NCBI GenBank assembly: GCA_947084965.1
Contig: CAMTUG010000002.1
Span: 79,434-143,433, forward strand
Reading direction: 5' to 3'
From: an uncultured Parcubacteria group bacterium
GTDB taxonomy: Bacteria > Patescibacteriota > Patescibacteriia > UBA9934 > CAMTUG01
Length of the DNA stretch: 64,000 nt
The translations under genes and the position numbers were made by a program. The notes beneath the pieces are model-generated. The model ran no database searches, was not told the DNA's origin, and saw nothing but the letters and a program-made list of their open reading frames with translations. Positions 2,896-62,400 of the stretch are shown here, in pieces (position 1 is the first letter of the stretch; each line of letters opens with the position of its first letter).

Positions 2896-2986
2896 TATGA
2901 AATTCGAATCTCTAAATACGAAATCAGAAACAAATCAGAAATTTCAATTTCGAATTTCGAAATTCGGATTTCGAATTTAATCAGAT
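2896..2986. repeat. TTCGAAAT-rich imperfect inverted-repeat element, copy A (between rpsQ and rplN)
   Basis: gaaattcgaatctctaaatacgaaatcagaaacaaatcagaaatttcaatttcgaatttcgaaattcggatttcgaattt; same motif family as 8810-8927 and 9723-9840. Confidence 0.6.
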
Positions 2987-3358
2987 ATGGTTCAACATCG
3001 CTCAATGATCGGCGTCGCGGATAACACAGGGGCTAAAAAGCTCCAGGTGATTCGTGTCCACGGTGGTTACCAAAAGCGTTATGCCTTTATGGGCGACGTG
3101 GTGACCGCTGTGGTTAAAATTGCCACCCCACACAACGCGATCAAAAAGAGTGACGTTGTGCACGCCGTGATCGTTCGCGCTAAAAAAGAGATTCGTCGCC
3201 CGGACGGTTCGTACATTCGCTTTGATGAAAACGCCGCCGTCATCATCGATCGCAAATCGAAGGAACCGAAAGGCACGCGTATCTTTGGACCGGTGCCACG
3301 CGAACTGCGCGATCTCGGGTTTACGAAGATTATTTCCTTGGCCCCTGAAGTGCTCTAA
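2987..3358 (+). CDS. rplN: 50S ribosomal protein L14
   Basis: [24 protein letters not shown]... Confidence 0.92.
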
Positions 3359-4839: not shown

Positions 4840-5397
4840 ATGTCACGCATTGGTAAACAACCTGTGGTCATCCCGAGCGGCGTCGATGTGACGCTTGCGA
4901 ATGGTTCGATTACGGTCAAGGGTCCGAAGGGGACGCTCTCCCGCGCCATCCACCCACGGATGACTGTGACGCTTGGAGAAGACGAAGGACAAAAGACGGT
5001 CAACGTTTCCATCGGAGAACAGGACGACGTCGAAGTCCGTGCGTTGTGGGGCACGACGCGCTCCAACATTCAGAACATGATCGTCGGTGTTGTTGATGGA
5101 TTCAAAAAGGCGTTGGAAGTTGTCGGTGTCGGGTATCGCGTCAACGCGCAGGGGAATAAAGTTGTCCTTGATGTTGGTTACTCCCATTCTGTAGATTTCA
5201 TTCTGCCAGAAGGAGTGAAGGCAGAAGTAGAAAAGAACACCTTGACGCTTTCTGGTATCAATAAGGAAGTTGTCGGTGAAGCTGCCGCTCAAATCCGTCG
5301 CATCCGCAAGCCAGAACCGTATGGCGGTAAAGGGATTAAGTATGTGGACGAAGTGATTCGTCGTAAGGCTGGTAAGGCCGCCAAGACCGGCGAATAA
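4840..5397 (+). CDS. rplF: 50S ribosomal protein L6
   Basis: MSRIGKQPVVIPSGVDV... two L6 repeats. Confidence 0.92.
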   Translation: MSRIGKQPVVIPSGVDVTLANGSITVKGPKGTLSRAIHPRMTVTLGEDEGQKTVNVSIGEQDDVEVRALWGTTRSNIQNMIVGVVDGFKKALEVVGVGYRVNAQGNKVVLDVGYSHSVDFILPEGVKAEVEKNTLTLSGINKEVVGEAAAQIRRIRKPEPYGGKGIKYVDEVIRRKAGKAAKTGE

Positions 5398-6810: not shown

Positions 6811-8076
6811 ATGAACGTGTTCCTTCGGATCTTCCGCATTAAAGAATTACGGACAAGCATCCTCTTTGTGTTAGGGATGCTTGTTATCTTTCGGTTAGCG
6901 GCCCACGTTCCGGTTCCGGGGGTGGATCCGTCAGCCTTGACCTCTCTTTTCCAGGGGAACCAGGTTCTTGGACTGCTAAACCTTTTTTCCGGCGGGACGC
7001 TTGAAAACTTCTCGATCGTTGCGCTGGGAATTGCCCCGTATATTACCGCTTCGATTATCTTCCAGTTGTTAGCCATGATCATCCCTTCGTTTGAAGAGAT
7101 GCAAAAAGAAGAAGCGGGTCGTCGCAAAATCAACCAGTACACCCGTATCGCCACCGTTCCGCTCGCCTTTTTGCAAGGCTATGGGATCATCAATTTGCTT
7201 GCGTCTCAAGCCCAAGGACTGATCGTTGATACTGGATGGTTAACGATGCTCCTCATCATGACGACGATGACGGCCGGCACGATCTTCCTGATGTGGCTTG
7301 GTGAATTGATCTCAGAACGCAACATCGGAAACGGTATTTCGATCTTGATCTTCGCTGGAATTATCGCTGGATTACCGACAACGTTTCAGCAGGTGCTCGC
7401 GACCTTTGATCGTTCCCAGGTTTTCGACATTCTGTTGATCCTCGCCTTGGTCATTGTGACGATTGTCGCGGTGGTGATCATCAACGAAGCCCAGCGCAAT
7501 ATCCCGATCCAGTACGCCCGGATGCAGCAAGGCGCGCGTTCGCTTGGTGGTGTTTCGTCGAACTTGCCGTTGCGTGTGAACATGGGAGGAATGATCCCGA
7601 TTATCTTTGCGGTGTCGATCATTCTCTTCCCACCGACGATGGCTCAGTTCTTCCTTCGTGCTAAAACAGAATGGATTGTGAACGCGGCTCAGTTTACGAT
7701 CGATATCTTCACCAACCAGCTCTTCTACGGGTTGATCTTCTTCCTCCTCGTCTTCGGATTCACCTTCTTCTATTCCGGGGTTGTTTTCCACCCGGATCGC
7801 ATTTCGGAAAACTTGCAGAAGCAGGGCGGCTTTGTTCCGGGCATTCGCCCAGGTCGCCCGACCGCCGAATACTTGCAGTGGGTCACCAATCGTATCCTCC
7901 TTCTCGGAGCCACCTACTTGGCCGTTATCGCGGTCCTCCCGATTGTGGTGCAGCAGGTAACGGGTACAGCCCAATTGGTCGTCGGTGGCGCTTCGGTTAT
8001 CATCATCGTCGGTGTTGTTATCGACCTTATCAAACAGATTCAGGCACAACTCTCGATGCACGAGTACGAGCATTAA
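6811..8076 (+). CDS. secY: Preprotein translocase subunit SecY
   Basis: 10-TM protein in the canonical rplO-secY position; LIFAGIIAGLP motif. Confidence 0.92.
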   Translation: MNVFLRIFRIKELRTSILFVLGMLVIFRLAAHVPVPGVDPSALTSLFQGNQVLGLLNLFSGGTLENFSIVALGIAPYITASIIFQLLAMIIPSFEEMQKEEAGRRKINQYTRIATVPLAFLQGYGIINLLASQAQGLIVDTGWLTMLLIMTTMTAGTIFLMWLGELISERNIGNGISILIFAGIIAGLPTTFQQVLATFDRSQVFDILLILALVIVTIVAVVIINEAQRNIPIQYARMQQGARSLGGVSSNLPLRVNMGGMIPIIFAVSIILFPPTMAQFFLRAKTEWIVNAAQFTIDIFTNQLFYGLIFFLLVFGFTFFYSGVVFHPDRISENLQKQGGFVPGIRPGRPTAEYLQWVTNRILLLGATYLAVIAVLPIVVQQVTGTAQLVVGGASVIIIVGVVIDLIKQIQAQLSMHEYEH

Positions 8077-8176
8077 AAGTTAGAGGTCAGAGGTTGGGGG
8101 AGAGAGGTTGGAGGGGATCTGCGCATCTCCTCTTTCTTCTTTCCTCTTTCTTTTAACCTCGGTATACTCTCCTCGT

Positions 8177-8809
8177 ATGAAAAAGATCCTCTTATTTGGG
8201 CCCCAAGGTGCAGGCAAAGGCACGCAGGCAGAGCGTTTGGCAAAGCATTTGAATCTCCCTGCGCTGTCCATGGGTGATTTATTGCGTCGTGAGCAGGCGA
8301 AGGGGAGCGAAATCGGCCGACAGATCGTGGAGATTATGACCCACGGCGGGTTGGTATCTGATCAGATTGCGGTGGAGGTGCTCAAAGCTCGATTGAAAGA
8401 ACCGGATGCGGCCGGGGGGTACATTATCGACGGCTATCCGCGCAACATGGAGCAGTACAAGGCCTACGTCGCCTTTGATCACCCGACCGACGTCATCGTC
8501 ATCGACGTGCCAGACGAAGAGTCACTCAAACGTCTCGCTGGTCGTCGCACCTGTGTAGGTTGTGGCAAGGTCTATCACATTGATTTCGCCCGCCCTAAGG
8601 TGGCAGATATCTGCGATGTTTGTGGTGGATCGCTTGTGCAGCGCGAAGACGATAAGCCAGAAGCGATCCTGAAGCGTTTGGGGATTTATCATAACGAAAC
8701 AGAACCGATGGCCAAAGAATTTGAAGCCCTTGGTGTCCTCCGCCGAGTGGATGGAATGGGATCGATCGACGAGGTGGAAGCAAAAATTCAAATGGCCCTT
8801 GGAGTGTGA
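8177..8809 (+). CDS. adk: Adenylate kinase (zinc-lid type)
   Basis: MKKILLFGPQGAGKGTQAERLA (P-loop); CVGCGKVYH...CDVCGG zinc lid; ORF-track start 8108 is an N-terminal overcall. Confidence 0.9.
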   Translation: MKKILLFGPQGAGKGTQAERLAKHLNLPALSMGDLLRREQAKGSEIGRQIVEIMTHGGLVSDQIAVEVLKARLKEPDAAGGYIIDGYPRNMEQYKAYVAFDHPTDVIVIDVPDEESLKRLAGRRTCVGCGKVYHIDFARPKVADICDVCGGSLVQREDDKPEAILKRLGIYHNETEPMAKEFEALGVLRRVDGMGSIDEVEAKIQMALGV

Positions 8810-8927
8810 AAACTCGAAATGTGAAATCCGAAATTCGAAATAAATTTGAATCGGAGATAGAAAATGTTCAAATTCGAATTTTTCGGTTTCCGGTTGTTTC
8901 GAATTTTGGATTTCGGATTTAATACGT
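8810..8927. repeat. TTCGAAAT-rich inverted-repeat element, copy B
   Basis: gaaatccgaaattcgaaataaatttgaa ... ttcaaattcgaatttttcgg ... tttcgaattttggatttcggattt; the arms are reverse complements. Confidence 0.6.
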
Positions 8928-9722
8928 ATGGCGATGACTAAAACAACAGAAGAGATTGATGCGATTCGCGAAGGCGGGGCGTTATTGTCGCGTTCGTTGC
9001 AAACGGCGATCGATGCGGCCAAGCAAGGGGTGACACTGCGTCAGCTCGATAAGATTGCGGAAGAGGCGATTCGTGCCGGTGGAGGAACGCCGTCGTTTTT
9101 GGGATACAAATCGCGCAGTAGCGACGAAGGATTTCCTTCCACCGTTTGCATTTCGGTCAACGACGAAGTCGTTCATGGGTCGGGCGCACGCGATGTTGTT
9201 TTGAAAAATGGAGATCTCCTCGGACTCGATATCGGCTGTTGGTACAAAGGATTGTGCACGGACATGGCGGTGACGATTCCGGTCGGAGGGTTCAAGGCGA
9301 TCCCGGACAAGCACAAAGAGTTGTTAACGGTGACGCGGGCATCGATGATGGCTGGGATTGAGGTCGCACGTGTTGGTGGAGATATCAAAGATATTTCTCG
9401 GGCGATCGAAGAATACGTTCGACCGTTTAAGTTTGGGGTTGTCCGGGCATTAGTCGGACATGGGGTAGGGCACAAAGTTCACGAAGATCCGCACGTGCCG
9501 AATTTTATTTCGAACCAATTTCCTTCTGTGCCGATTCAGAGCGGAATGGTGTTGGCGATTGAGCCGATGCTGACGCTTGGCGGCTGGCAGGTAGAAACAG
9601 GGGATGACGGTTGGACGATCAAGACGGTCGATGGCTCACTCGGCGCGCATTTTGAGTTAACAATTGCGGTGACAAAGGATGGGGTGGAGATTTTGACCCC
9701 TCCGCCAAATGTGGGGTTTTAA
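8928..9722 (+). CDS. map: Methionine aminopeptidase type I
   Basis: pita-bread metalloprotease motifs ...DIGCWYKGLCTDMAVT...VGHGVGHKVHEDP... Confidence 0.9.
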   Translation: MAMTKTTEEIDAIREGGALLSRSLQTAIDAAKQGVTLRQLDKIAEEAIRAGGGTPSFLGYKSRSSDEGFPSTVCISVNDEVVHGSGARDVVLKNGDLLGLDIGCWYKGLCTDMAVTIPVGGFKAIPDKHKELLTVTRASMMAGIEVARVGGDIKDISRAIEEYVRPFKFGVVRALVGHGVGHKVHEDPHVPNFISNQFPSVPIQSGMVLAIEPMLTLGGWQVETGDDGWTIKTVDGSLGAHFELTIAVTKDGVEILTPPPNVGF

Positions 9723-9840
9723 ATTCGAAATACGAAATCCGAAATTCGAAACAAATTCAAAGTGGAAACAGGAAGTTTGCAAACTTTCCTTTTCCTATTT
9801 CTGATTGTTTCGAATCTCGACATTCGAATTTAGAGTTTCT
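9723..9840. repeat. TTCGAAAT-rich inverted-repeat element, copy C; contains perfect palindrome AAGTTTGCAAACTT
   Basis: aaattcgaaatacgaaatccgaaattcgaaacaa ... ggaagtttgcaaactttcc ... ttgtttcgaatctcgacattcgaattt. Confidence 0.6.
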
Positions 9841-10233
9841 ATGCGCTTACTAGGAATTGATTACGGACTAAAAAAGATTGGCCTCGCCATCGGTGACGAC
9901 GAAGCAGGCGTCGCCGCTCCGTTAGAGGTGATTAGAAATGATGGAGAGATGACGACGGAGCTTCTGGCTAAGCGTATTCGTGACGAAGAGATCGATGCAG
10001 TTGTTTGTGGGGCGCCCCTTTCACAGGGTGGACATCACTCGAGCGATCAACTCGATAAAACTCGCGCCTTCATGGAGTCGCTTCGGAAGCAGGTGACCAT
10101 TCCGGTGTACGAGGAGGATGAGAGTTACACCACCAAAGAAAGTATTCGCATCGCGCGCGAGGAAAAATCTGGGATCGACGAAGATGCGCTGGCGGCATCC
10201 CTAATTTTGCAACAGTTTTTGAACCGCACCTAA
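9841..10233 (+). CDS. ruvX: YqgF/RuvX-like putative pre-16S rRNA nuclease / Holliday junction resolvase-like
   Basis: MRLLGIDYGLKKIGLAIGDDEAGVAAPLEVI... RNase H-like YqgF signature. Confidence 0.8.
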   Translation: MRLLGIDYGLKKIGLAIGDDEAGVAAPLEVIRNDGEMTTELLAKRIRDEEIDAVVCGAPLSQGGHHSSDQLDKTRAFMESLRKQVTIPVYEEDESYTTKESIRIAREEKSGIDEDALAASLILQQFLNRT

Positions 10234-10240
10234 AAGCAAC

Positions 10241-10290
10241 GACCACCCCCGAGGAGTAGCGACGAGAGGGTCGCTGCATGGGGGTGGTCT
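10241..10290. terminator. GC-rich hairpin element (CGACCACCCCC ... GGGGGTGGTC) between convergent genes; member of a repeat family
   Basis: cgaccacccccgaggagtagcgacgagagggtcgctgcatgggggtggtc; ~40 nt of it recurs reverse-complemented at 50431-50480 and, related, at 48822-48882. Confidence 0.5.
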
Positions 10291-10304
10291 TGTCGTTCGG
10301 ACTA

Positions 10305-11273
10305 CTACTCGTCGTAGTAGTCGTCGGGGTACTCGTGGTCGGATGGTTCAAGGACCCCGTCTTCATAGCCGGTGCCGTCTTCGTCCTCCTTCGGCGGGAC
10401 GATCGGGAGGGCCTGGTCCTCGAAGACGACGATCCGGTCGTGGGCGTTCCGCTGGCCGGGCTTCTGCTCGCCGCGCCGGAAGGCGAGGGAGTAGGGCCCG
10501 ACCGAGGCGAAGACGAACATGTCCGGGTGGCGGGTCCGCTCGTTGCGGCCGACCGTGAGGTCGATCGCCGAGGCGCCGCTGCCGCTGTAGACCACGAGCG
10601 TCTCGCCGGGGAGCGGCACCACGCGGTGGCCGATGAACTCGCCGACGCGCTGGAAGTAGCTCCTGGGCCCGTGGATGTTTTCGACCCGCTCGCCGAGCCG
10701 CTCCTTGCTCCCGTTGCTGAAGACCCAGTGGTCGCGGGTCCACGGCTTCAGGGTGAGGGCCTGCTCCCACTCGACGGTCTCGCAGCCGAGGTAGTCGAGC
10801 TTGTTGAGCGCCAGCTTCATCTCCACCCCCTTCGCGGGGTCGGCGAAGGTGATGGTGACGATGGGGGTCTTGTTGCGGTCGATCCAGCCCTGCTTCACGG
10901 TCAGCGTCACGCCCTCCTTCGGGGTGAGGGTGATGACCTCGCCGTCGAGCTTGGCGCCGAAGGGCTCGCCATAGCGGACCGCGTCCTGCGCCCGACTGGA
11001 CTCGAATCGGTCGTTGTTGAACCGGTCGAAGTAGCCGCCGGGCCGGGGGAGGTAGACCCCGAGGCAGGACCCGAGCACCCGTTCGAGCTCGCTCCAGTTC
11101 TCGTTGGCTTCGAGCGCCATGCGGATCCCGCAGGCGACCATTCGGTGGTCGGTCCCGATCCCGACCCCGCGACCGTAGGGGTCGTAGATGTAGGTCGTGC
11201 TGACGGGCCGGCGGAAGCCGATGATCTGCTTCATGGACATCGGAAAATCCTCCTCTTCACGTGCGGAGTGCAC
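10305..11273 (-). CDS. Hypothetical protein in a strongly GC-rich, GC3-biased island (possible start at 11240, MSMKQ)
   Basis: 322 aa ORF; visibly higher GC than flanking ruvX/recO; acidic C-terminal tail; own TTGACA-N18-TAATCT promoter upstream. Confidence 0.6.
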   Translation of the reverse strand: MHSAREEEDFPMSMKQIIGFRRPVSTTYIYDPYGRGVGIGTDHRMVACGIRMALEANENWSELERVLGSCLGVYLPRPGGYFDRFNNDRFESSRAQDAVRYGEPFGAKLDGEVITLTPKEGVTLTVKQGWIDRNKTPIVTITFADPAKGVEMKLALNKLDYLGCETVEWEQALTLKPWTRDHWVFSNGSKERLGERVENIHGPRSYFQRVGEFIGHRVVPLPGETLVVYSGSGASAIDLTVGRNERTRHPDMFVFASVGPYSLAFRRGEQKPGQRNAHDRIVVFEDQALPIVPPKEDEDGTGYEDGVLEPSDHEYPDDYYDE

Positions 11274-11323
11274 GGTGGTGCTTCTCGCGCTTCATGCGCG
11301 GAAGTGGCCTAGATTAGCATCAA

Positions 11324-11351
11324 AAGCCGATTCTGTCAAGACAGAATCGGC
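11324..11351. promoter_or_regulatory. Perfect 13-2-13 palindrome overlapping the -35 box of the minus-strand promoter, in the divergent recO intergenic region
   Basis: agccgattctgtc aa gacagaatcggct; TGTCAA (=TTGACA on minus) lies in the right arm. Confidence 0.4.
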
Positions 11352-11372
11352 TGAATATGGGAAAATTGACTC

Positions 11373-16078: not shown

Positions 16079-17491
16079 ATGCAGCGCACATGGAATTGGG
16101 AGACGAAAGACAAGGTGGGGGAAGTGGTTCGCTTGAACGGCTGGGTGCATAACGTCCGTCGTGTCGGCGATAAGCTCGTCTTTGTTATTTTGCGTGACGG
16201 TTCGGCTACGGTGCAGTGTGTCTGCTACAAGCCGGATTTAGACGAAGCCACAAACGCGCTGATCGATTCGCTCGGTACAGAGTTTGTTGTCGAGATCGAA
16301 GGTGAGGTGAAGGCGCGTGGGGAGAAGCAGATCAATCCGGATATGGTGACCGGTACGGTCGAAGTCGGAATTAAATCGCTCAAAGTGTTGAACACCTGTA
16401 AGACCCCGCCGTTTGAGATCGACAAAGACACGATGGGGGTGAATGAAGAGTTGCGTTTGAAGTATCGCTACCTTGATCTGCGCTCAGAGCGAATGCACAA
16501 GAATATTTGGATGCGTTCCTCGATTGTGCGGGCCATTCGTGATCATCTGTACGCCTCGCATTTTACGGAGATCGAAACGGCGATTCTGACCAAAGGGACG
16601 CCAGAAGGGGCGCGTGAGTTTTTGGTCCCGTCACGCCTGCACGCCGGGAATTTTTACGTCCTGCCACAATCGCCACAGCAGTTCAAGCAGTTGTTGATGG
16701 TCGGTGGAAAAGAGCGTTACTTCCAGGTGGCCAAATGTTTCCGCGATGAAGACCAGCGCGGCGATCGTCAGCCGGAATTCACTCAGATCGACCTTGAGAT
16801 GAGTTTTGTTGAGCGCGAGGATGTGATGAACGTTATCGAAACGATGTTGATCGAACTCGTGACCAAGTTGTATCCAGGGAAGAAGATTCAGCAAACGCCG
16901 TTCCCGCGTTTGTCGTACAAAGAAGCGATGGAAAAGTACGGCACCGATCGTCCAGACTTGCGCGAAGACAAGAACGATCCGAATCTTCTTGCTTTTGGCT
17001 GGGTGATTGATTTTCCGTTCTTTGAGAAAACCGAGGAAGGTGGGTGGACGTTCACTCACAATCCATTTTCGCGCGCCTTGCCGGAATGTCATCAGGACTT
17101 GATGGACAAGAAGAATATTGAAGGGATCGTCACTTCACAGTATGACGTGGTGTTGAACGGGTTTGAGATCGGTGGGGGATCGATTCGCAACCATGAATCG
17201 CTCGCGCTACAACGCGTCTTCGAAATCATGGGGATCGCCATGGAAGAGATTCAAGCCAAGTTTGGTCATATGCTCGAAGCGTTCGAATTCGGCGCACCAC
17301 CGCACGGGGGGATTGCCCTCGGACTCGATCGCTTGGTCGCCATTTTGCAGAACGAACCAAACATCCGCGAAGTGATCGCCTTCCCGAAGGATGGCCACGC
17401 CTACGACCACATGATGCAAGCGCCGTCGCCGATGCCGGAGAAGTCGCTCAAGGAAGTGCATATCGAATTGGATGTAGAAAGCGGAAAGTAG
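16079..17491 (+). CDS. aspS: Aspartyl-tRNA synthetase (short form, no GAD insertion)
   Basis: motif 2 FQVAKCFRDEDQRGDRQPEFTQIDLEMSF; motif 3 GGIALGLDRLV. Confidence 0.85.
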   Translation: MQRTWNWETKDKVGEVVRLNGWVHNVRRVGDKLVFVILRDGSATVQCVCYKPDLDEATNALIDSLGTEFVVEIEGEVKARGEKQINPDMVTGTVEVGIKSLKVLNTCKTPPFEIDKDTMGVNEELRLKYRYLDLRSERMHKNIWMRSSIVRAIRDHLYASHFTEIETAILTKGTPEGAREFLVPSRLHAGNFYVLPQSPQQFKQLLMVGGKERYFQVAKCFRDEDQRGDRQPEFTQIDLEMSFVEREDVMNVIETMLIELVTKLYPGKKIQQTPFPRLSYKEAMEKYGTDRPDLREDKNDPNLLAFGWVIDFPFFEKTEEGGWTFTHNPFSRALPECHQDLMDKKNIEGIVTSQYDVVLNGFEIGGGSIRNHESLALQRVFEIMGIAMEEIQAKFGHMLEAFEFGAPPHGGIALGLDRLVAILQNEPNIREVIAFPKDGHAYDHMMQAPSPMPEKSLKEVHIELDVESGK

Positions 17492-17509
17492 TAAGCAGAA
17501 AGCGGAGAC

Positions 17510-40587: not shown

Positions 40588-40664
40588 GGGCGTTTAGCTC
40601 AGTTGGTTAGAGCGTTGCATTCACATTGCAAAGGTCGGTGGTTCGAGTCCACCAACGCCCACCA
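40588..40664 (+). tRNA. tRNA-Val (CAC)
   Basis: GGGCGTTTAGCTCAGTTGGTTAGAGCGTTGCATTCACATTGCAAAGGTCGGTGGTTCGAGTCCACCAACGCCCACCA. Confidence 0.8.
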
Positions 40665-40845
40665 AAAATTTCTCAGCCTAAGGCTGGGAAATTTTTGATA
40701 TTGGTGGACTCGAATCAGGGAAAGGGGAACGGGGGAAACGGGAGTTTCCCCAGTGAGGTCGCCAGTGAGGAAGGGGTGACAGCGAGCGGAGGCGAGCGCC
40801 AGAGGGGAAACGACGTTTCCCCATGGGGAGGAGCGTAGCGACGAC

Positions 40846-40869
40846 GTTCGCGTCCACCAACGCCCACCA
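40846..40869 (+). repeat. Direct duplicate of the tRNA-Val 3' end (att-like remnant)
   Basis: gttcgcgtccaccaacgcccacca versus tRNA 3' end gttcgagtccaccaacgcccacca; an inverted T-arm fragment ggtggactcgaa lies at ~40703. Confidence 0.55.
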
Positions 40870-40874
40870 AAAAA

Positions 40875-40908
40875 TCCCGAGGCGTACGCCTCGGGATTTT
40901 TTGTTTTC
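40875..40908 (+). terminator. Rho-independent terminator
   Basis: tcccgaggcgtacgcctcggga + tttttgtttt. Confidence 0.65.
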
Positions 40909-51652: not shown

Positions 51653-53494
51653 ATGAAGTTTGTCGCATCACTTTTTGTTGCGCTGACGTTAATTGCCACA
51701 CCGATATTTGTCGCGCTCGCCCAGCAGGAAGGGCTCGATACGGTTGGTACAGCGTCAGGACTTGGGAACCAGGATCTGCTGGTGACCATTGGTCGTGTAG
51801 TTCAAGTATTCCTTGGACTTCTTGGTGTTATCTTCCTGTTGCTGACGATCTACGCCGGCTACCTTTGGATGACGTCGCAAGGGGATGAAGAGAAAGTTCA
51901 GAAGGCGATCAACATCATTAAATCGGCGACGATCGGGTTGATCATCTGTCTGGCCGCGTTCGCGATCGCTACGTGGATCGTGAATGCGCTCATCGCAGCG
52001 ACAGGGCTCGGTTCCGACACTACGGACGACAGCGCAACGCCAACCCCGTTCTCGGACGCTCTCGGAAGCGGTGGTATTGAAGATCATTATCCGCCACGCA
52101 ACGGAACGGATATCGCCCGTAATACAAAAATTATCGTCACGTTTAAAGAAGAGGTTTATATCCCTTCACTGATTGTTGATTACGATACAGGGGCGGATGC
52201 GTCAGATGTGAGCGATGACACCGCTCCAGCCGTCGCTTATTTGAACACAGATAATGTGACGATCTCCTGTGTTGATCCGACCACAGCAGAGGAGACGGAT
52301 CTTACTTCAACGGAAGTGACCGTGGCCTTTACGGAAGATTTACAAACATTCGTGTTCGATCCGCCCGTTCTCGGTTCGTCTGTTTATGAAACGACATGCA
52401 CCGTTGCTCTTGGTCCGGGTATCTTAGAAGCGGATGGAGCGAATGTCTTCACCGGTTCAAGCGCGGAAGGTTACCAATGGTCATTCACGGTTTCGACCGA
52501 GATCGATACCACTCCGCCGACGATTCGTAGCATCTACCCAACAGAAGGGGCGACAGACGCACGCAATGTCTTAGTGCAGATCGTCTTTTCCGAGGCTGTG
52601 GATCCAACAACGACATCTGGAACGTATGACCTGACAGAGGGCGGATTCACCAACATCCAGGTTCAGTCTGACGAAGACGAAACAGGCACCTACAGCCCAG
52701 TTGCCGGAACATTCGTCATTTCGAGCGGATACACGGTCGTTGAATTTACCTCCGCCGACGCTTGTGGGACGAATTCTTGTGGAGAGACGATCTATTGTTT
52801 GCCTGGGCCGAGTGCTACAGAAGCAACAGAAGAAATTCAACTTGAAATTCAGGCCGCTGACCTCGGAGATTCTCCTCCAGAGGCGGCCACACCGTATACG
52901 GGCGTCGTTGATGTGGCGGGGAATTCCCTTGATGGAAACGACGACGGCACAGCCGGGGATGATGCACGTTCAGATTTTTCTGTCACGGATGAAATCGTTT
53001 TGGCCGGACCTGAGCTGACCGATATCTCACCAAATCCTGTTGAGGAAGATGTCGACGTGGATGCAGATCTGACCTTTATTTGGGATACGATCATGCGTTC
53101 AAGCACACTGACCAACAGCAACATCAGTTTGTACGCTTACCCCGATCACGAATTGTATTACGTCGCTCGCAACAGTTCGTACGACAGTAGTGGGGTGGAA
53201 GTGACAGCAACGACCCAAACCCCGGATCACACCGTGACGGAGATGAGTCATGGGACGTTTGTCGAATCGATTGAAGATGATCCATCAACAGCGGCGGATG
53301 AATCGACCTCACAACTGTATGCTCCATTACTCCCGGACGCAGTGCAGAGCATCTATCAAAACTGTTTCTACCCAGCGGTGGGGCCAGGGGCGAGCGAGAC
53401 GACTTCGTGTGATGGTACGGCCAACAATCCGTACTGCTGCGATGGAGTAGAAGCTGACGCTCCGTTTAACGCCACGACATTCTCATGTCCTTAA
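51653..53494 (+). CDS. Secreted/membrane-anchored protein: signal peptide + two-helix pilin-like (TrbC/VirB2-like) module + Ig-like domains + Cys-rich C-terminus
   Basis: MKFVASLFVALTLIATPIFVALAQ ... LLGVIFLLLTIYAGYLWMTSQGDEEKVQKAINIIKSATIGLIICLAAFAIATWIV; same module as the next gene. Confidence 0.7.
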   Translation: MKFVASLFVALTLIATPIFVALAQQEGLDTVGTASGLGNQDLLVTIGRVVQVFLGLLGVIFLLLTIYAGYLWMTSQGDEEKVQKAINIIKSATIGLIICLAAFAIATWIVNALIAATGLGSDTTDDSATPTPFSDALGSGGIEDHYPPRNGTDIARNTKIIVTFKEEVYIPSLIVDYDTGADASDVSDDTAPAVAYLNTDNVTISCVDPTTAEETDLTSTEVTVAFTEDLQTFVFDPPVLGSSVYETTCTVALGPGILEADGANVFTGSSAEGYQWSFTVSTEIDTTPPTIRSIYPTEGATDARNVLVQIVFSEAVDPTTTSGTYDLTEGGFTNIQVQSDEDETGTYSPVAGTFVISSGYTVVEFTSADACGTNSCGETIYCLPGPSATEATEEIQLEIQAADLGDSPPEAATPYTGVVDVAGNSLDGNDDGTAGDDARSDFSVTDEIVLAGPELTDISPNPVEEDVDVDADLTFIWDTIMRSSTLTNSNISLYAYPDHELYYVARNSSYDSSGVEVTATTQTPDHTVTEMSHGTFVESIEDDPSTAADESTSQLYAPLLPDAVQSIYQNCFYPAVGPGASETTSCDGTANNPYCCDGVEADAPFNATTFSCP

Positions 53495-56400
53495 AACGTT
53501 TCATCCTGAGTTTCGTGATCGCCCTCGCTGCCGTGGGATTCTTTGCTCTGCCAGCCCTTGCCCAGATCGATACAGGGATTGAAGAGGGGAGTGCATTCCA
53601 ACAAGCGCTCGGGCTTGGCACGGCCGATCCTAAGATTATTGTGGCGAACGTGATCCGTGCCGCCCTCGGACTGCTCGGTGTTGTTGCGGTCTGTCTGTTC
53701 ATCTACGCCGGCTTTTTGTGGATGACGAGCGGCGGAAGCGAAGAAAAAGTTGATCGGGCGCGCAAGATGCTGATCAACGCCACGGTCGGGTTAACGATTA
53801 TTTTGGCTTCATTTGCCATTACGCAGTTTGTCCTTTCGCGTCTGCTTTCAGCCACTGGAGTCGGCGGCTCTGATATTACCGGTGGAGGAGGCACGTCTGG
53901 TGGGGCACCGGCTTCCACCGACGCGGTGTTTGTGATTGAAAGCGCTTCACCGCAAGGCGAGCAGACGATCAAAAACTTAACGGTCCGTCTGACCTTTAAC
54001 AAAGACGTTGACGGGGACACGGTGAGTGCGATCACGATTACACCAGATGGATCTTCGACGCCGGTTGAGGGGACGTATGCGGTCAACGGTGATCGTGTGA
54101 CCTTCACCCCGAGTCTCGCCTGTGAAGAAGCGCCGAGCGAAAACTGTTTTGCGGAAAATACGTTGTACACGATCGAGCTGGGTTCAGGGCTGAAGAGTGA
54201 GTCCGGCCTGACGATCTCTTGTGGTGGACTGTATGACGCCTGTGAGTACGAATTTACTTCTGGGGAGCTTGTTGATACCACAGATCCCGAAGTTGAGATC
54301 ACCTACCCGGAAGACGGCGATTCCGTTTCTGTTGATGCGTACGTTCCGCTTCAAGCGCTCGTCACGGATGATGCCGGAGTTTCTTTGGTTGAATTTTACG
54401 TGGACGGTGTGTTGGTTGATACCGATCAACCGGACGGCGACACCCCGACCGAATTTATCGCTGAAATCGAATGGGACACCGCGGCGATCGAAGAGGGCAG
54501 TGAGCATGAGATTTATGCGATCGCCTACGATGTGAACGCGCATGATGCGGATTCGGATGCGATTGAAGTGACCGTACGTGCCGCGCACTGTTTTAATGGA
54601 GAGACAGATGAAGATGAAACGGGGGAAGATTGCGGCGGCGAAGATTGTGGTTCCTGTGGCGGTGATGCGTGTGTCGAAGATAGTGATTGTCAAAGCGGAG
54701 TCTGTGAAGACGGTTCTTGCGTCGATGCCCCAGAAATTACAGGCGTTTCTCCGGCGGACGGCGCTCCGGGCACCTACGTTACGATTTCTGGAAATAATTT
54801 TGGGAGCAGCACTGGCACGGTGTTGTTTGGAGACGTTGAGGCCGAACTTGCTGACTGTAACGACCCGTGGGATACGGATCAGGTCATTGTTGTCGTTCCG
54901 GAAGGGGTGAGCGAGGGGGAACTTTATACTATTACGCTCACAACCGCAGGTGGTCATAGCGATAGTACGGATGATGACAACGGTACGTTGATTGATGATT
55001 TTGAAGTGACTTCGGTTGTCCGTCCGGGGATCTGTCAGTTGGATCCGGATTTTGGTGAGGTCACAGACCCGACAGATGTATTGGGGGTAAATTTTGGCGA
55101 TGCCCAGGACAGCGGGGCATTTTATTTCGGCACCGTAGAAGCTGGAGCGTACACGGATTGGGCCGACGAACTTCTTTCCGTGATCGTGCCAACGCTCGCA
55201 GCCGATGATTACGATGCTACGGTTTGGATTGATGGAGTGGAATCAAACACCGTCAACTACGAAGTGCAGGAAGCAGACACCGGTGCGGCACCTGTCATCA
55301 CCTCGATCGATCCAGAATCCGGACCGATCGATGAATACGTGACCATTGTCGGTGAAAACTTCGGTTCTTCTACTGGTTTGGTTTATTTCACAAATACGGA
55401 TACAGAAAGTGCTGATTTTGGGGTAGTGACGGCCGCCTCCACGGATTTCCCCGCCGTCTGTGTAGATGATATCTGGGGTGGCGAAGAAATCATCGTCAAA
55501 GTGCCAGAAGGTGTTGAGAGTACAACGTACTCGGTCAATGTCTATCGGTACGACAGCGTCGCTTCGGAAGGGATAGACTTCACGGTGACGGACGGTACGG
55601 CCGGTCCGGGGATCTGTGCGATCGATCCGGATTCTGGACCGTCCGGGTATGAAGGGGTGACGATCTCGGGTGAAGGATTTGGGGACGATGAAGGCACAGT
55701 CACGTTTGCTGACGGTCAGTCAGCGAGCGTCACTACCTGGGAAGACGGAGAAATTGTGGTCGATGTGCCGGAGGCGGCAGTGACGGGCTATGTAACGGTC
55801 ACGGATACCTCAGATGATGAATCCAACGGTACGCTTTTTGGCATCGGCGACTGTAACGAAGTTGATCTTTGTGATGCGAACACCCAGCAGTGTTGTTCTA
55901 CAGGGGTGTGTGTTGCTTCAACGGGCAGCTGTCCGGAAGAAACGGTGATTGATGCGTCGTATGCCTGGCGGTTTTCAACTGGGCCGATTCCGACGGTGCC
56001 GGGGATCGAGGTGGAATGCTCGGACGACATGATCAGTCCGACCCCTTGGGACGGACGCTCTGGTGGTGATGCGGTTTGTGTCAATGCCGCCCTTTCGGCA
56101 ACCTTCGACACGACGATGGATCAGGATAGCTTTACCTCAACGACGATCTTGTTGAATAAATGCACCGGCCCATCCGACGACCCTTGTTCATCTGTGGAAT
56201 CGGTTACTCTCGACACGATCGATACAACAAGCGTCAGCTTTACGGTCGCGCCTGCCTCGGTTCTCGACGTCTCCTCGACCTACCTGATCACATTAACGAG
56301 TGGGATCACTTCGTATAATGGAACGGCGATCGAGGAAACAGCCTGGACATTTGGGACCTCCTCGAGCGCGGAAATTTGCGATATCGAAGGGGTGAACATC

Positions 56401-59400
56401 ACCCCGAGCAGCCAAACGATCGAAGAGGAAGATGGGACGGCGAATTTCAACGCCCAAGCGGTCGCGGCGGACGAGTGTGTCATCCTTGATTCCGGCGCCT
56501 ACGCTTGGAATTGGGAGACAGACGAGACGTATGCCACGCTGACAACCGCAGCCGATGCGGATTGCACCGGCGAGCCGTCTTCTTGTCAGAGTGCGCTGGC
56601 GGTCCAAGAGGGTACGTCTTACATGTTGGTCGAAGAAAACACCCAGGGGGTGGACGATGATGCCGACCTGCTGATTAATTTTACTAATCCGTACATCGTG
56701 AGTTACGAACCTTCTTGCGGTGAAGGGGGAACGGCCTGTATCAACGCCGGGATTTACGTCACCTTTAATACGGAGATGGACGAAAGTTCTATCACGAGCC
56801 CTGGGCGGGTCGTGGTGTATCCGTGTACGGATGAAATTTGCGCTGCCTATACGGATGCCGACGGGATCGAACTTTCCATTGATCTCGATGACGATGATCC
56901 AACACAGCTCTCCATCATCCCAACCAGCTACTTCACGTCGACAACGTATTACGAAGTTATCCTGTCCGGGGACATTGCTTCTGAGAGTGGGGTGTTGATG
57001 TCGGAAACGTACGACGGTGATTTCTCCTGGACGTTTTTGACTAAAGCAGACGACACACTTTGCGCTGTTGATCGTGTTGCCTTGGATCCAGGTTCGGCGA
57101 CCGTTGATTACGTCGGGGCGACAGCGGTTTTTGAATCGCGCGCTTATGGTTTGCCAGACGCCTGTTCTTCGGAAGGTCAACAGCTTGTCGGTACGAGCTA
57201 TGACTGGGCGTGGGTGAGCGACAACACAGCTGTTGCCACACTCTACAGCGATGGTGCAGTCGAAGTGGCTACGGACGAAATTCCTGACGGGTGTACAACG
57301 TCTTGCTTACCAGAAGGGACGCAAAGCTACACCGCCATTTGCGGCGAAGACGCAGACGGTGATGGGAGCTTGCTCGATTCGGGTGAGGATTGTGATGACG
57401 GAAACGCTGAAGACGGTGATGGATGTTCTTCGCAGTGCTTGAACGAGGGGACGACGGCCTGCACTTCTGCGACCGACCCGTCCTGCTGTGGAAATGGTAC
57501 GGTCGATGCGGCTGAGGAGTGCGATGATGGCGGGAGTAGGAGTGGTGACGGTTGTTCCGCAAGCTGTCTCAATGAAGGATCACGGTCCGTTGGTTTGAGC
57601 TGCACGGACAACGTTTTGACACACTACGACACCGTCGGGACAACGACCTGGGCCGGAGGGGAAGAGTGCAATGACGAAGATGATGGCTGTTCAAGTGTAT
57701 GCTTGAACGAGGGGTCGCCGTCGAACTTGGATTTGGTCGGTGTGTGTGGTAACGGTGTCGTGGAAAGTCCGGCAGAAGAGTGCGATGGCGGGGCTCGCTG
57801 TTCCGACACCTGTCTGTTTGAAGGGAATACCACGGCCTGCAGTGCAACCGTTACCACGAATTGTTGTGGCAATAGCACGACTGAATCTTCTGCTTTTGAA
57901 TCTTGTGACGACGGAAATACCACCAGTGGCGACGGCTGCTCAAATCTTTGTCTGCTGGAGGGAAGTTCCGCACTCTATACCACCCCAAGTTTCTGCGCGG
58001 ATGCCACAGTGGGGTTGGGCGAAGCTAGTGCTTGCGAAGTATCAACCAGCGATTTAGACGGGAACGTTGAACCGATTCAGGTGGCGATCATCGCCACGAC
58101 CGCTCCGGCAGAAGTGGTTGACGGAGTGGCGACGTCCACGATTGAGGCAACGACCGAAGGGGAGACCGGCGAGGCAGCGTTTAATCTTTCCTGTTCCTGT
58201 ACGGTGGACAGTGACTGTTCCGACTCGACGACGCTCGGCTGCGGAACGGGTGGATGTTGTTACGTCCGACCAACAGTAACCGACTACACCCCTTCAACAA
58301 CGGATGCCTGTCGCAACACGTTGATCTCTTTTACCTTTGATGCCGAAATGAACATCAACACCTTTGCTGAAAATGTTTCGGTCGAACTTGAGTTGGATGC
58401 TGATGAAACCTGTCCGTATGATGGGTCGACGGCCCGCGCGAACGGGAGCTGGTTCTCGCGTCTGTGGAACACGGTCACCGATTTCTTCACCGGATTTGTT
58501 CTGCCGGCAGATGCGCAATCATCCGTTTGCGAACTTCCTTTCACCTTCAGTGTCTCTGACGATGCGGGCGGACAACGCGTATCCTTGATCTATACGGAAT
58601 TACTGGAAGCGAGTCATGATTACACCGTGACGATCACCGGTGATCCAGATCACGACGGTTCTGGTGTTCGCTCGGCCGACGGGGTCGGTATGCAAGCGGA
58701 TTACACCTTCACCGCTGAAATCGGCGAGGACGTCTGCTCATTTGATGCGGTGAGAGTTGAGGATGAAGACGAAGATTCTCCAGGGCTCTTCACAGAGACG
58801 AATGAAGAGCACAGCTATCATGCTACAGCGATCACCACGACCGGAGGTGTGGAAGAAGAACTCTCTTCAATCCCAGGGGTTTACGAATGGGATTGGACGC
58901 AAACGTGGTGGTCAACCGACACGGAGATTTTGACCGTCCCTTCGACGAGCGAAACCGATGCCGAGGGCGATGATAACGTCGTCACCGCCGTCGGAGAAAA
59001 CGGGGAAGCGGTTATTTATGCCGATGCGCTGATCACCGTCGATACGCTCTTTGGCCTGGCGGGTGAATCTGTTGCTGGATCGGTTGATGCCGTTGCTAAC
59101 TTGTGTGAAAATCCTTGGCCGGCATTGCCGACCGCCGATGAACTCGCGGCGGGCGGTACCTGGGAACCGTTTACCGATGAAGACGGCGCGGATGCGGATC
59201 CAGATGATGACGGCACAGATGAAATTGCTGAACGCGATGGCTACATGCACTTCTCGACCTATTATTGCCGTGATGATGGCGATGAAGGGGGGAGTGATGA
59301 CTTTGATTCGGCAGACGCCGTCGGTGTGACGGCTCCACCGGGTGATGTGCTCAAAGAATATCTTTTCCGTTTCAGCAACGGCGACGGTATTGGTATTCGC

Positions 59401-62400
59401 ATCTCTCCAAATGAAGATCTCCTGGCGATCGGTGACTGGTATGCAGAGCAAGGATTCACCGGTTCGCCTTCCGCCACAACGGTCGATGGCTACGAAGCGC
59501 TCCAAGACGGCCGCACGGTTTACGTTTTGGCCGCCAATCAGAGCGACGATGGCGACATCTATTCGAATATTTACGTCCTCTCCTATTCCGAAGGGGCTGA
59601 TGAATCGACGGTGGAGATCTTCAACCAGATGCTTGAAAACTGGTCGTTCAATACCAACGTCAGTAATGATCAGCTTTGCTATGAAACGGTAACCACAGCA
59701 ACGGAAGTGACCGCCAGGATTCCGATCTGTAATTCAGCGACCTCTGCCGGATATCAGCAGGATTGTGTCATGGACTGTGATGACGCATGGCAGTGTTACT
59801 ACGGTGATACGGACGAGGACGGCTATTGTGACATGGTTGGGACGGCCAACTTGCGTGGTGAAGGTGCTGTCTGTGGCGATGGAGATTACGACTGTAGCAT
59901 TGATTGTTCAGGATCAAGCATCGGTTTCCGTACCGGAACCGTTACTCATGATGTGGATAGCCTTGAGATTTCAGCGGAGACCTGTTCCTCGGATTTCGAT
60001 TGTTCCAGCGGGCCTTGTAGTGCAGAAAAGGACAAGCTGACGCGTGACCTCAAGCGTCTGACCGACCTGCGCTATATCGAAGGAGCTCTTGAGAATTATG
60101 GCGAATCAAACGGGCGCTGCAGCGCATCGACCTCTATCTCTTGTACTTCAAGCGCGGATTGTCCGAGCGCCAGCGAAACATGCGAACCGGTCTATCCAGA
60201 GATTAACTCCGGTTCGTTCCTCCGCTCCATCACCGATAGCGCTTGGTCGTCGTGGACCGAGGTGTTGCAGAGTGACTTGGAAGTAACGATCCCAACCGAT
60301 CCGCTCAATCAATTCGATCTTTGCGGAGAGACGGGTGGCGATTACGCGGACTACAGCGCAGACACCTGCTGGAACGCGACCAACTCGTTATTCGCCTGTC
60401 CGGCCGGCTCCTACACCTATCTCTATCGTAATATTGGTCAAACGGCGTATCAGATCCTCGTTGACCTAGAATATGATTACGTCAGTGCTAGCCCGACGGC
60501 TTCTTGGGCCTTCGCCATTGACCAAGACACGACGGACGATCTCGATATTTTGGTGGGGAACGCCTTCGATAATCTGACTGACGGGTATCAAGAGGATCCA
60601 ACGTGTAACGACGACATCTACGGCGCATCCGAAGTTTGTGGGGACGGCGTGCGTGGGTCTGGGGAGGCGTGTGAAGCGGGTGATACCCAGAGCGTTGCTT
60701 GCACCGCACTGGTCTGTGTTAGTAGAGACGCGGATTATGACGGACAAGCCTGTCTGATCGATTGTACGGACACGACGATCTGTTCCGGCGGGGATGCGGA
60801 TGCGGACGGTGACTGTGATTCCGGCCTGGCCGCCGGCCTTGCCTGTAATTCCGGCGCAGTCGATTGTACGGACACGACGATCTGTACAACAACCGCTTCG
60901 GAGAGCGGGACAACGACCGAATCTTGTATCGACGACCCCAGCGATGCCCTGGCTTGTGATGATTATGAAACGAATCCTCGTGCGGCCTGCGTGCCGGTTC
61001 GCTGCGGAAACGGTGTCGTTGATGCGGGTGAAACGTGCGACGACGGTTCACGCAACGGGACGTACGGCTATTGCGGTACTAATTGCGCTTGGGACAGCTC
61101 AGCGTTCTATTGTGGTGACGGTACCCTTGCTGGCGGAGAATCTTGTGATGAAGGTTCAGACAACGGTGTCTATACACTGAATCCGGCTAATTCTTGCAAC
61201 GCCACCTGTTCAGGGACCGGTCCATCCTGCGGAGATGGAAAGGTAAATGGTGCCGAGATTTGCGATGGTGACAACGAGCAATACGAAGGCGCACTCTGTT
61301 CAGATGGGGAGACGGCGTGTGATGATGATAGCGACTGCTCCGGAACAGATACCTGTCATTTGACGTATGATTCGAGTGTGTCCATTTTGGGCCAGCATCT
61401 CGCCTGTCCGACAGGGAATGTCTGCGTCGGTGGCTCGCTTGATGGAGTCCTTTGTAATGGAACGAGCTGGGCGGATGTTGGGATCACGGGCTTGGATGAA
61501 CTTGGCGTCGATCTAGTTCTACTCGGTTTGTGTCAGGCGGGTGGGGGAACATGCGACACAACAGCGGCTGAATATCAAACCTATCGCACCCGTTCTTGCG
61601 ATGAAGATGCGACAAGTGCCACCGCCTGCCAATGGAACTCTTGGAATTATTGTAACAGTGCCGAGCAAATGTGCGGCGATGGGGAAATACAGGGTGAGGA
61701 AGAATGTGATGACGGTAACAGCAGCAATAATGACGCCTGTACTAACGCCTGTACTTCGAACGTCTGCGGTGATGGCTATTTGTACTCCGGTTACGAAACG
61801 TGCGACCGCGGGGACGAGAACGGCACGATCTGCGAAGCAGATTACGGTTCAACCTGTCGCTACTGCTCAAATGCCTGTGTCTATCTGACCGCTTCGGGTG
61901 ACTATTGCGGTGATGGAGTGCTTGATACATCTTCTGAAGTCTGTGATGGAACACTTACCTCGCACTATTACTATTTTGATTCAGCAACTCGGACGGTTAA
62001 CGGGATCTGTTACACGCTCGGTGACACACTCTCGGACGATGGTGTTGATTACACCTGTCGTGATGTTGGTGTTTGTGACGGTGGTCCTGATGGCGGGGAA
62101 TATTGTACCTACTCCGCTGGGGAGTCGGTTAGTGGAAATGATCAAACGACCTGTGATACCAACTCGACACAGTTCTATACTTGTATGAAGCCGACGTGCA
62201 ATGATGATTGTGCAAGCGCCTGTCCGTTCAATTATGAAGAAGGTACGGTCTCGATTACCAGCGAGTCCGCTGGGGCTGTGGCTGGTACTTCGCTTAGTCT
62301 GTACAGTTTTGAGAATGATGATGGTAATGCGCCGGACAACGCCACACTGACGCTTCCAGCCTGTACTGTTTGGTCGTCGTTAACTGCCGATATTTCTGAA

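Follow-up and report, generated by a model that had tools for sequence, protein, structure and literature searches.

How do two intergenic spacers of exactly the same length, and much poorer in G+C than the genome around them, come to flank a single gene in the compact genome of a member of the Patescibacteria, or Candidate Phyla Radiation (CPR)? The spacers lie between adk and map (positions 8810-8927) and between map and ruvX (9723-9840) of a 64,000-nt stretch of contig CAMTUG010000002.1, hereafter the window. Each is 118 nt long with a G+C content of 31-33%, in a sequence of ~53% G+C whose genes are almost all on the plus strand, and the first 10 kb of the window run from a ribosomal-protein superoperon through secY (6811-8076) to adk, map and ruvX. 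An original prediction, made from the letters without database searches, saw in these spacers two copies (B and C) of a dispersed repeat with a third copy (A) further upstream, and took it for either a small mobile element or a regulatory RNA motif. All three copies are foldback repeats, rich in A+T, with arms that consist of tandem heptamers (CGAAATY), and it is argued here that they are probably gene-less miniatures of a selfish foldback cassette, of the type known from the intervening sequences (IVSs) of ribosomal RNA, that would be co-transcribed with the surrounding genes as long hairpins.

Element B occupies 8810-8920 on the plus strand, with (A)AAACTCGAAATGTGAAATCCGAAATTCGAAAT as its left arm and TTGTTTCGAATTTTGGATTTCGGATTT as its right arm. 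Its boundaries are good to ~3 nt, and the last 7 nt of the spacer (AATACGT) separate it from the map start codon at 8928. Element C (9721-9838, also plus strand) has a left arm, AAATTCGAAATACGAAATCCGAAATTCGAAACAAAT, with 2 mismatches to the 36-nt consensus of the wider family and a right arm that has decayed; the foot of its hairpin is formed by 9721-9729 and 9823-9831, and the element includes the two A's of TAA, the map stop codon. Element A, a short and decayed copy with the opposite intrinsic orientation, lies on the minus strand at 2900-2978, within the rpsQ-rplN spacer (2896-2986). B and C are 71-73% identical, ungapped, over 112-116 nt and have in common an exact 18-mer, GAAATCCGAAATTCGAAA, which at up to 3 mismatches is matched nine times in the window, always within A, B or C, where 0.10 matches are expected. 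Their homology over the whole length (71% without gaps, at equal length) suggests one 118-nt progenitor rather than two independent deletions. Tandem Repeats Finder (TRF) reports period-7 arrays at 2940-2978 (A, 5.7 copies), at 8815-8841 and 8897-8920 (the arms of B) and at 9721-9751 (the left arm of C). With nhmmer, arm profiles built only from elements of other genomes match nothing in the window except C (E-value 1.4e-12), B (4.4e-9) and A (1.1e-6, minus strand, 2978-2948). On folding, B reaches -44.7 kcal/mol (z -6.2), C -34.9 (z -4.5) and A -19.8 (z -2.3). The minus strand of B reaches -23.6, a gap of ~20 kcal/mol that comes from G.U pairs and is seen again (-44.9 against -24.6) in hairpin X, a structure of different sequence in the secY-adk spacer.

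The shared 18-mer, the folds and the profile matches bear out the grouping of A, B and C into one dispersed family, and the two spacers had been described correctly as to coordinates, sequence, length and their nature as inverted-repeat hairpins. Other parts of the original prediction have not fared as well. C had been read as a likely terminator on the strength of a perfect palindrome followed by a T-run; the palindrome, AAGTTTGCAAACTT, is indeed present at 9773-9786, but what follows it is a T-rich stretch with no clean T-run. The stem is AU-rich, lacks a proper U-tract and stands inside an operon, and a terminator scan made no call within B or C, its sole call near C (9700-9716) being the coding end of map, all of which argues against termination. 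Nor do the copies end directly at a start codon, as the conserved element stops 7-9 nt before each ATG.

Insertion of the elements is seen directly by comparison with three relatives found by way of homologs of the window's Map protein (such homologs carry the names Uhrbacteria or 'Patescibacteria group'), namely L004, whose Map is 95% identical and whose DNA is ~83% identical, L002 (Map 81%) and L003 (Map 75%). The adk-map junction of L004 reads gtaTAAtATGgcg and its map-ruvX junction gggtttTAGtATGcgt, in both cases a stop codon, one base and a start codon, and at the same two junctions L002 and L003 have 1-3 nt between the stop and the ATG. The rpsQ-rplN junction of L002, gtgaaaTAAtATGgttcaa (TAAtATG), likewise has a spacer of 1 nt, and there are no heptad arrays in the loci of the three relatives, which together cover ~36 kb. 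With abutting junctions and no arrays in the relatives, parsimony favours three gains in the lineage of the window, those around map being read as recent, and the suggestion that a small element had been inserted is thereby supported by empty sites in all three relatives for B and C and in one for A. Because the element ends in runs of A and T the breakpoints lack base-level resolution, although for C the reading gggtttT, element, AGagtttctATG gives back the TAG stop seen in L004. Judged from these sequences, A, B and C are very probably members of the family and insertions. Two short-read Logan contigs identical to the window (L001 and L132, sample ERR3478686) end and begin inside C, which indicates that the repeat breaks assemblies of this organism. 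An exact-protein look-up for population polymorphism returned for RuvX the same sample only, with contigs broken inside C, and for L14 no match.

The family reaches far beyond this lineage. The 18-mer was scanned against one genome per GTDB species (596 Gb) and was found in genome contigs at least 120 times, with ~17 matches expected by chance on our estimate, and a 24-mer scan of JGI metagenomes gave at least 70 further elements with a median length of 151 nt, so that many further copies exist elsewhere. The genome matches listed are from Desulfobacterota, Binatia, Acidobacteriota, Verrucomicrobiota, Kiritimatiellia, Planctomycetota, Bacteroidota, Omnitrophota, Firestonebacteria, Aminicenantes, several CPR groups and the Beta- and Gammaproteobacteria, and include one isolate, Wenzhouxiangella. 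About half of those listed are plain direct (CCGAAAT)n arrays without a palindrome and about half are hairpin elements of 105-180 nt. In 66 elements the stems have 26-80 pairs, mostly 45-60. In IMG/VR the 18-mer is present in seven viral contigs, three of which have canonical elements. Arms of 36 nt with 0-2 mismatches to the consensus are found in different phyla (for example in L037, L023 and L094), and identical or nearly identical ones occur in Desulfobacterota, Binatia, Planctomycetota, Verrucomicrobiota, Patescibacteria, Omnitrophota, Acidobacteriota, Proteobacteria and viral contigs. Positions 9720-9761 of the window, in C, are 97.6% identical to locus L053 of a Deltaproteobacteria metagenome-assembled genome (MAG). 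On this sequence comparison near-identical arms are present in more than ten phyla, which is hard to square with a motif specific to one lineage, and the elements remain poor in G+C where the host genome is rich in it, as in L126 (67%).

An artefact of assembly or library preparation was considered as the source of such matches and rejected, as the elements have variable centres, stand between real genes, and are found on contigs of several hundred kb to Mb, in many studies and in one isolate genome. A consensus-quality element has no BLAST match among PLSDB plasmids or INPHARED phages, a result to which the low-complexity filter may contribute. At the gathering threshold no Rfam family matches the elements, either in the window or in 16 element-bearing loci: what reaches it in the window is tRNAs alone, and elsewhere one riboswitch in a single locus. 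Below threshold, where the window was also scanned by E-value, there are generic miRNA-like hairpins only, and the same set is free of rRNA. No paper with the CGAAAT motif strings was found, as literature searches for them gave only primer sequences of no relation, and a further search, on foldback and subterminal repeats, brought up nothing of relevance.

Related heptads are also seen in other guises. L016 has two copies, separated by 2.3 kb (2974-3009 and 5310-5345), of a 33-nt stretch that matches the left arm of C exactly, and this stretch reads as coding sequence (...IKFEIRNPKFETSLKIYDASGRVV..., like a C-terminal sorting domain), either as part of an element absorbed into a gene or through a wrong gene call. 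Four loci from Thermoanaerobaculia and Chondromyces (L024, L090, L106 and L117) have a composite repeat of a G-rich block, four AAATCCG heptads, GGGCGGGCGGGCGGC and four ATTCCKA heptads, which implies that CGAAAT-type heptads are also modules of other repeat families. Long direct arrays of (CAGAGRN)n and (GAGGTCR)n follow stop codons at L053:3560-3760 and L217:3039-3110, in genomes that also have the CGAAAT element, and the first of these resembles the GACAGAT heptads of the Coxiella IVS discussed below.

The consensus left arm is AAATTCGAAGCACGAAATCCGAAATTCGAAACAAATTCAAATGAYCAAAAT and the consensus right arm ends in TTTGGATTTGTTTCGGATTTCGATATTCGGATTTCGGATTT, with element ends of the form AAATYCGAA...TTCGRATTT and a G+C content of 26-33% in the window copies. 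Left and right arm differ at 8 of 36 positions. As these differences are kept from phylum to phylum, the element has a polarity of its own. This polarity is not used at random: in co-directional contexts the sense orientation is taken in 15 of the 18 genome cases and 17 of the 24 metagenome cases (in total 32:10, p = 0.0009), and in the metagenome set no element was found between divergent genes. The position is equally biased, with sense-oriented elements in operons lying a median of 9 nt after the upstream stop codon and 28 nt before the next start codon, and with the ribosome-binding site of the downstream gene, where present, on the 3' side of the element. Junctions that host elements include nusG-rplK, rpsL-rpsG, rpsH-rplF, an upstream open reading frame (ORF) followed by recA, and an apparent sugar-nucleotidyltransferase gene followed by an apparent dTDP-glucose dehydratase gene, the names being read off N-terminal sequences; ribosomal-protein operons recur among the sites, the rpsQ-rplN junction of the window included. 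The strand that runs from left to right arm is more stable than its complement in 33 elements and less stable in 17.

The origin of the elements is suggested by a metagenome locus, L199, that came to light in a search for a transposase between distant arm pairs. Its arms stand 484 nt apart and enclose a 118-aa ORF that matches PF05635 ('23S rRNA intervening sequence protein', 2.9e-10), TIGR02436 ('four helix bundle protein', 7.8e-17) and PDB 2RLD, an entry with five chains (7e-9). Relatives of the protein number more than 8000; the best 120 of them are 68-80% identical and are named from different phyla. Its ATG sits in a sub-apical motif, CAAATGAYCAAAA, which is also conserved near the top of the left arm of elements without an ORF (41 of 109 by a strict pattern), and the sequence just 3' of the stop codon of the cassette gene is similar to the corresponding section of the right arm (cgttttgaatatttgg in L263, gttttgagcatttgaa in L264). 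The physical link is seen directly in all seven loci inspected, L199 among them, where homologous genes lie between the same heptad arms, in sense and tight between co-directional neighbours; these come from Roizmanbacteria (between a GT2 gene and degT), Pseudomonadota, Aminicenantia, Patescibacteria and other groups, and junctions such as groEL-dnaJ and leuC-leuD (with a CTAAAT variant of the heptad) are among them. Inverted arrays of another heptad, (TTTTGGA)n...(TCCAAAA)n, stand on either side of a more distant homolog in L143. With the same arms and shared motifs around four-helix-bundle genes, the ORF-less hairpins, which vastly outnumber those with an ORF among pattern-matched loci, look like miniatures of the cassette produced by internal deletion, and we are reasonably confident that this cassette is what they derive from. 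No transposase was seen between arm pairs 0.5-5 kb apart in ~1.5 Mb of loci, and PADLOC returned no defence-system match for the four-helix-bundle proteins.

A cassette of this architecture has been published from rRNA. The IVS of the Coxiella burnetii 23S rRNA is a 428-nt 'selfish genetic element' whose terminal inverted repeats form a stem and which has an S23p ORF preceded directly by 3-4 tandem heptamers (GACAGAT); the stem is cleaved by RNase III, the origin of the element is unexplained, and an old proposal holds that the ORF of IVSs encodes a component of mobility (PMC4990558). In Xanthomonas S23p forms a homopentameric ring (PMC4990558). The PF05635 family has a relative in Avd, which serves diversity-generating retroelements as their accessory protein (PMC10053308), and ORFs of this family (23S_rRNA_IVP) occur in rRNA insertions of CPR bacteria (PMC11270868). 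With the S23p-type IVSs of Coxiella, Leptospira, Xanthomonas and Brucella (PMC4990558) the present elements have in common a long stem made by terminal inverted repeats, full-length copies with a four-helix-bundle ORF of ~120 aa in the loop, tandem heptamers in the 5' arm directly upstream of its start, a sporadic distribution put down to horizontal transfer, highly transcribed essential transcripts as targets, and the lack of a known mobility enzyme. They differ in that those IVSs are in helices 9, 25 or 45 of the 23S rRNA, whereas the present elements are in mRNA spacers between protein genes and in most cases, including all three of the window, no longer have the ORF. Their heptad reads CGAAAYN where the Coxiella IVS has GACAGAT, the arms of ~55 nt are nearly identical across phyla, and excision by RNase III is known for the IVSs whereas here there is only a predicted duplex of at least ~40 bp. 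As they have the architecture of an IVS without the rRNA location and without the ORF, they are treated as a separate form and not as members of the S23p-type IVSs.

It is proposed that the full cassette consists of two arms of ~55 nt, made of tandem CGAAAYN heptamers, around a gene of ~120 codons for a four-helix-bundle protein (PF05635/TIGR02436) related to Avd, and that the architecture published for Coxiella is here put to use in short operon spacers instead of rRNA. In this Patescibacteria lineage the elements would have landed between the stop codon and the next start codon of genes that previously abutted. Being sense-oriented inside operons, with no promoter or terminator called, they are probably transcribed as part of the operon, and the RNA would then fold into an AU-rich hairpin of 40-50 bp whose foot places the upstream stop next to the downstream start. 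Such a duplex should be a natural substrate of RNase III, as in the rRNA IVSs, and on that analogy processing of the hairpins by RNase III is about as probable as its opposite; were they cut, this could explain why insertion between formerly abutting genes is tolerated, or even harmless, in essential operons. The spread of the elements would presumably be driven in trans by the copies that bear an ORF.

Several observations weigh against this account. The 64-kb window has no four-helix-bundle gene and its three elements are all without an ORF, and copies of this kind may go back to full-length insertions that underwent deletion where they stood, rather than to miniatures that spread. No target-site duplication or target motif was found in the flanks of 40 oriented elements, and no mobility enzyme or mechanism has been identified. 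A lies in antisense, unlike B and C, and for both C and A it is the antisense strand that folds slightly better. The orientation statistics rest on crude gene calls by longest ORF. RNAalifold on 42 elements gives 17 conserved pairs with no compensatory change in the arms, so that the structure is supported by the folding of individual elements only; the apical parts are significantly structured in just 18 of 41 elements. With arms too conserved to vary and apical parts that defy alignment, the covariation check that the original prediction had proposed speaks neither for nor against a conserved structure; between B and C themselves a count finds three changes, all of them one-sided.

One rival is that of a cis-regulatory RNA selected by the host, in which the hairpins serve the processing, stability or translational coupling of operon mRNA and are kept for the benefit of the cell. 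The sense bias (32:10), the G.U-dependent strand asymmetry of B and X, the position exactly between stop and start codons and the frequency in ribosomal-protein operons of several phyla would all suit such a role, yet the elements are missing, with the genes abutting, in a relative whose Map is 95% identical and in two further relatives. The same sequence stands in the spacers of unrelated pairs of genes, both in viral contigs and in more than ten phyla, it is the sequence of the arms that is conserved and not pairing alone, Rfam has no matching family, and there is the physical link to the four-helix-bundle cassette. We regard this rival as unlikely, though some elements may have been domesticated for such a role later. 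A binding array at the level of DNA, with the heptads as double-stranded sites for a cellular protein of chromosome organisation or regulation, has a model in the ribbon-helix-helix protein omega of Inc18 plasmids, which binds heptad iterons. It would agree with the strict 7-nt register, with direct and then inverted heptads, and with sequence conserved without covariation; set against this are the orientation bias and G.U asymmetry, which are unexpected for a symmetric double-stranded site, the lack of elements in close relatives and the fact that no candidate protein was identified, and we consider it highly improbable.

A classical MITE (miniature inverted-repeat transposable element), that is a deletion derivative of an insertion sequence (IS) moved by a DDE transposase that recognises its terminal inverted repeats, had been one of the forms suggested by the original prediction. 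Long terminal inverted repeats, small size, many copies, empty sites and the great excess of ORF-less over ORF-bearing copies are all what a MITE would present, and a multiple alignment of the copies does bring out the terminal inverted repeats. The flanks of the 40 oriented elements show no target-site duplications, however, and the lack of these and of a transposase between arm pairs, together with the strong bias of orientation, argues against a DDE mechanism. The position is biased as well, and the only ORF seen between the arms is that for the 120-aa four-helix-bundle protein, which has no transposase domain, so that a classical MITE is very unlikely. A further rival is independent expansion of simple sequence, in which slippage in AT-rich spacers gives rise to heptamer microsatellites that turn palindromic without common descent. 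Bacterial intergenic DNA is enriched in heptamer repeats (PMC4692102, PMC4679880), plain direct arrays make up about half of the 18-mer matches listed, and other flavours of heptad occur in the same genomes. What such expansion would not be expected to give is an order of heptad variants, an asymmetry between arms and a sub-apical ATG motif that are conserved across phyla, window copies that score to 1e-12 against profiles from other genomes, or elements that stay AT-rich at a genomic G+C of 67%, and it deserves very little credence. Further candidates were dropped by inspection and by comparison with consensus sequences: integron attC sites, as there are no RYYYAAC or GTTRRRY ends and no integron, the ends of IS200/IS605 elements, as there are no subterminal small hairpins, and parS/NBS-type sites and CsrA sponges.

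The Correia/NEMIS elements of Neisseria and the ERIC elements of enterobacteria are intergenic foldback repeats of 100-170 nt that are transcribed into operon mRNA, and Correia elements duplicate a TA target and have a hairpin that is reportedly cut by RNase III. To our knowledge each of these families is confined to a genus or family. They resemble the present family in the co-transcribed foldback design and in insertion polymorphism between close relatives, whereas the present family has no target duplication, is biased in orientation, ranges across phyla and has a four-helix-bundle parent. Eukaryotic foldback transposons, which have long inverted arms of tandem sub-repeats of 10-31 bp, little or no centre and transposase-bearing partners, are alike in form only. 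REP (repetitive extragenic palindromic) sequences and REPINs that go with RAYT transposases (PMC3733652, PMC3337134) are also extragenic hairpin palindromes with many copies between genes and no target duplication, but they are G+C-rich, 20-40 nt long, bear a GTAG or CGTC tag and flank a RAYT gene, none of which is true of the elements described here with their 105-180 nt, and the REP-like label of the original prediction is therefore not retained.

Among published heptamers, TAACTGA repeats of Beggiatoaceae, Cyanobacteria and Bacteroidetes lie a few bases upstream of start codons, in ribosomal-protein operons among other places, and are spread over phyla in a way for which 'no mechanism is evident' (PMC4679880), and intergenic heptamers are also known as GGGAATC in Xanthomonas and GGGGAYT in Nostoc (PMC4692102). 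Repeats of the TAACTGA and GGGAATC type (PMC4679880, PMC4692102) are like the present ones in their 7-nt unit, in 2-6 head-to-tail copies, in their place between genes near start codons, in their occurrence in ribosomal-protein operons, in their patchy spread across phyla and in an occasional inverted arrangement. They are mostly direct arrays of one unit in variable copy number, whereas the present elements are ordered heptad variants in two complementary arms, ~140 nt in all, and are linked to a protein gene.

Since the discovery of IVSs, around 1990, their origin and mobility have been open and the S23p family has been without a known function (PMC4990558). The results suggest that the IVS-type cassette is far commoner outside rRNA, in operon spacers, with abundant gene-less miniatures and arms that are almost invariant across phyla, and that the window is a local sample of a very widespread and apparently undescribed IVS-like foldback element. 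They also supply an arm consensus of 36-55 nt, hundreds of natural variants, and filled and empty sites, as well as the prediction of a pentamer on a heptad array. This prediction comes from a tentative idea, to which we attach rather little probability, that the heptad arms are a binding array for the ring-shaped four-helix-bundle protein, and that this protein moves both cassette and miniatures, alone or with a reverse transcriptase recruited in the manner of Avd; its basis is the pentamer of solved relatives and the ~5 heptads of each arm. If true it would make the family a transposase-free class of selfish element and would explain the spread of IVSs, the role of S23p/TIGR02436 proteins and the over-representation of intergenic heptamers. 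The family is also a candidate for the common source of the intergenic heptamer repeats that have been reported piecemeal in cyanobacteria, Beggiatoaceae and Xanthomonas. In practical terms, elements that break short-read assemblies and would put long double-stranded RNA hairpins into the essential operons of CPR bacteria with their reduced genomes bear on the quality of MAGs and on how operon expression is modelled.

Hairpin X, which lay outside the finding of the original prediction, fills the 100-nt secY-adk spacer (8077-8176, plus strand) and is recognised by its fold and by a period-7 array that TRF places at 8131-8152. It has ~5 heptads per arm, AGAGGTY on the left and YCTCTTT on the right, around a short loop, with many G.U pairs and with the right side as a pyrimidine-rich complement of the left, and it is related to the A, B and C family by architecture only. 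Arrays of (GAGGTCR)n, comparable to the AGAGGTY heptad of X, are present in other element-bearing genomes. L002 and L003 have in place of X an extra ORF between secY and adk (811 and 456 aa respectively) with no Pfam match. By TRF the window has seven period-7 arrays in total, all at gene junctions and all in its first 18 kb. One of them, GGAAAGT in 3.7 copies at 1308-1350, is within the 3' end of ORF 973-1374, with the following ribosomal-protein operon gene just after it. At 17476-17503 four AGAAAGC-type heptads in direct array (GAAAGCG GAAAGTA GTAAGCA GAAAGCG) run across the stop codon of a 470-aa ORF and end 6 nt before the start of scpA; the counterpart of this ORF in the relatives is a class-II aminoacyl-tRNA synthetase gene, which in L002 and L003 overlaps or abuts scpA.

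The genes on either side of B and C are all on the plus strand. Upstream of B is adk (8177-8809), identified from the ORF list and sequence and by a match to Pfam ADK on the identical Logan contig, between B and C is map (8928-9722), a type I methionyl aminopeptidase gene by PF00557 on the identical Logan contig and by named homologs, and downstream of C is ruvX (9841-10233, PF03652). The assignment of the elements themselves draws for B on sequence, fold, left-arm profile, period-7 arrays and the empty site in L004, for C on sequence, arm matches, left-arm profile, the likeness to L053 and the empty site in L004, and for A on sequence, left-arm profile, TRF and the short junction in L002. Beyond ruvX, the interval to recO (10234-11372, ~1.1 kb, 61% G+C) is missing in L004, where the gap between the two genes is 1 nt; it has a plausible gene on the minus strand (10305-11273, 322 aa, no Pfam match), and the plus-strand ORF of the Logan record looks like a shadow ORF. 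At 40588-40901 the 3' end of a tRNA-Val gene with a downstream hairpin (40641-40696) recurs 205 nt further on, at 40846-40901, with 75% identity, a pattern typical of an integration site or the remnant of one. A single ORF of 3305 aa occupies 53485-63402 on the plus strand.

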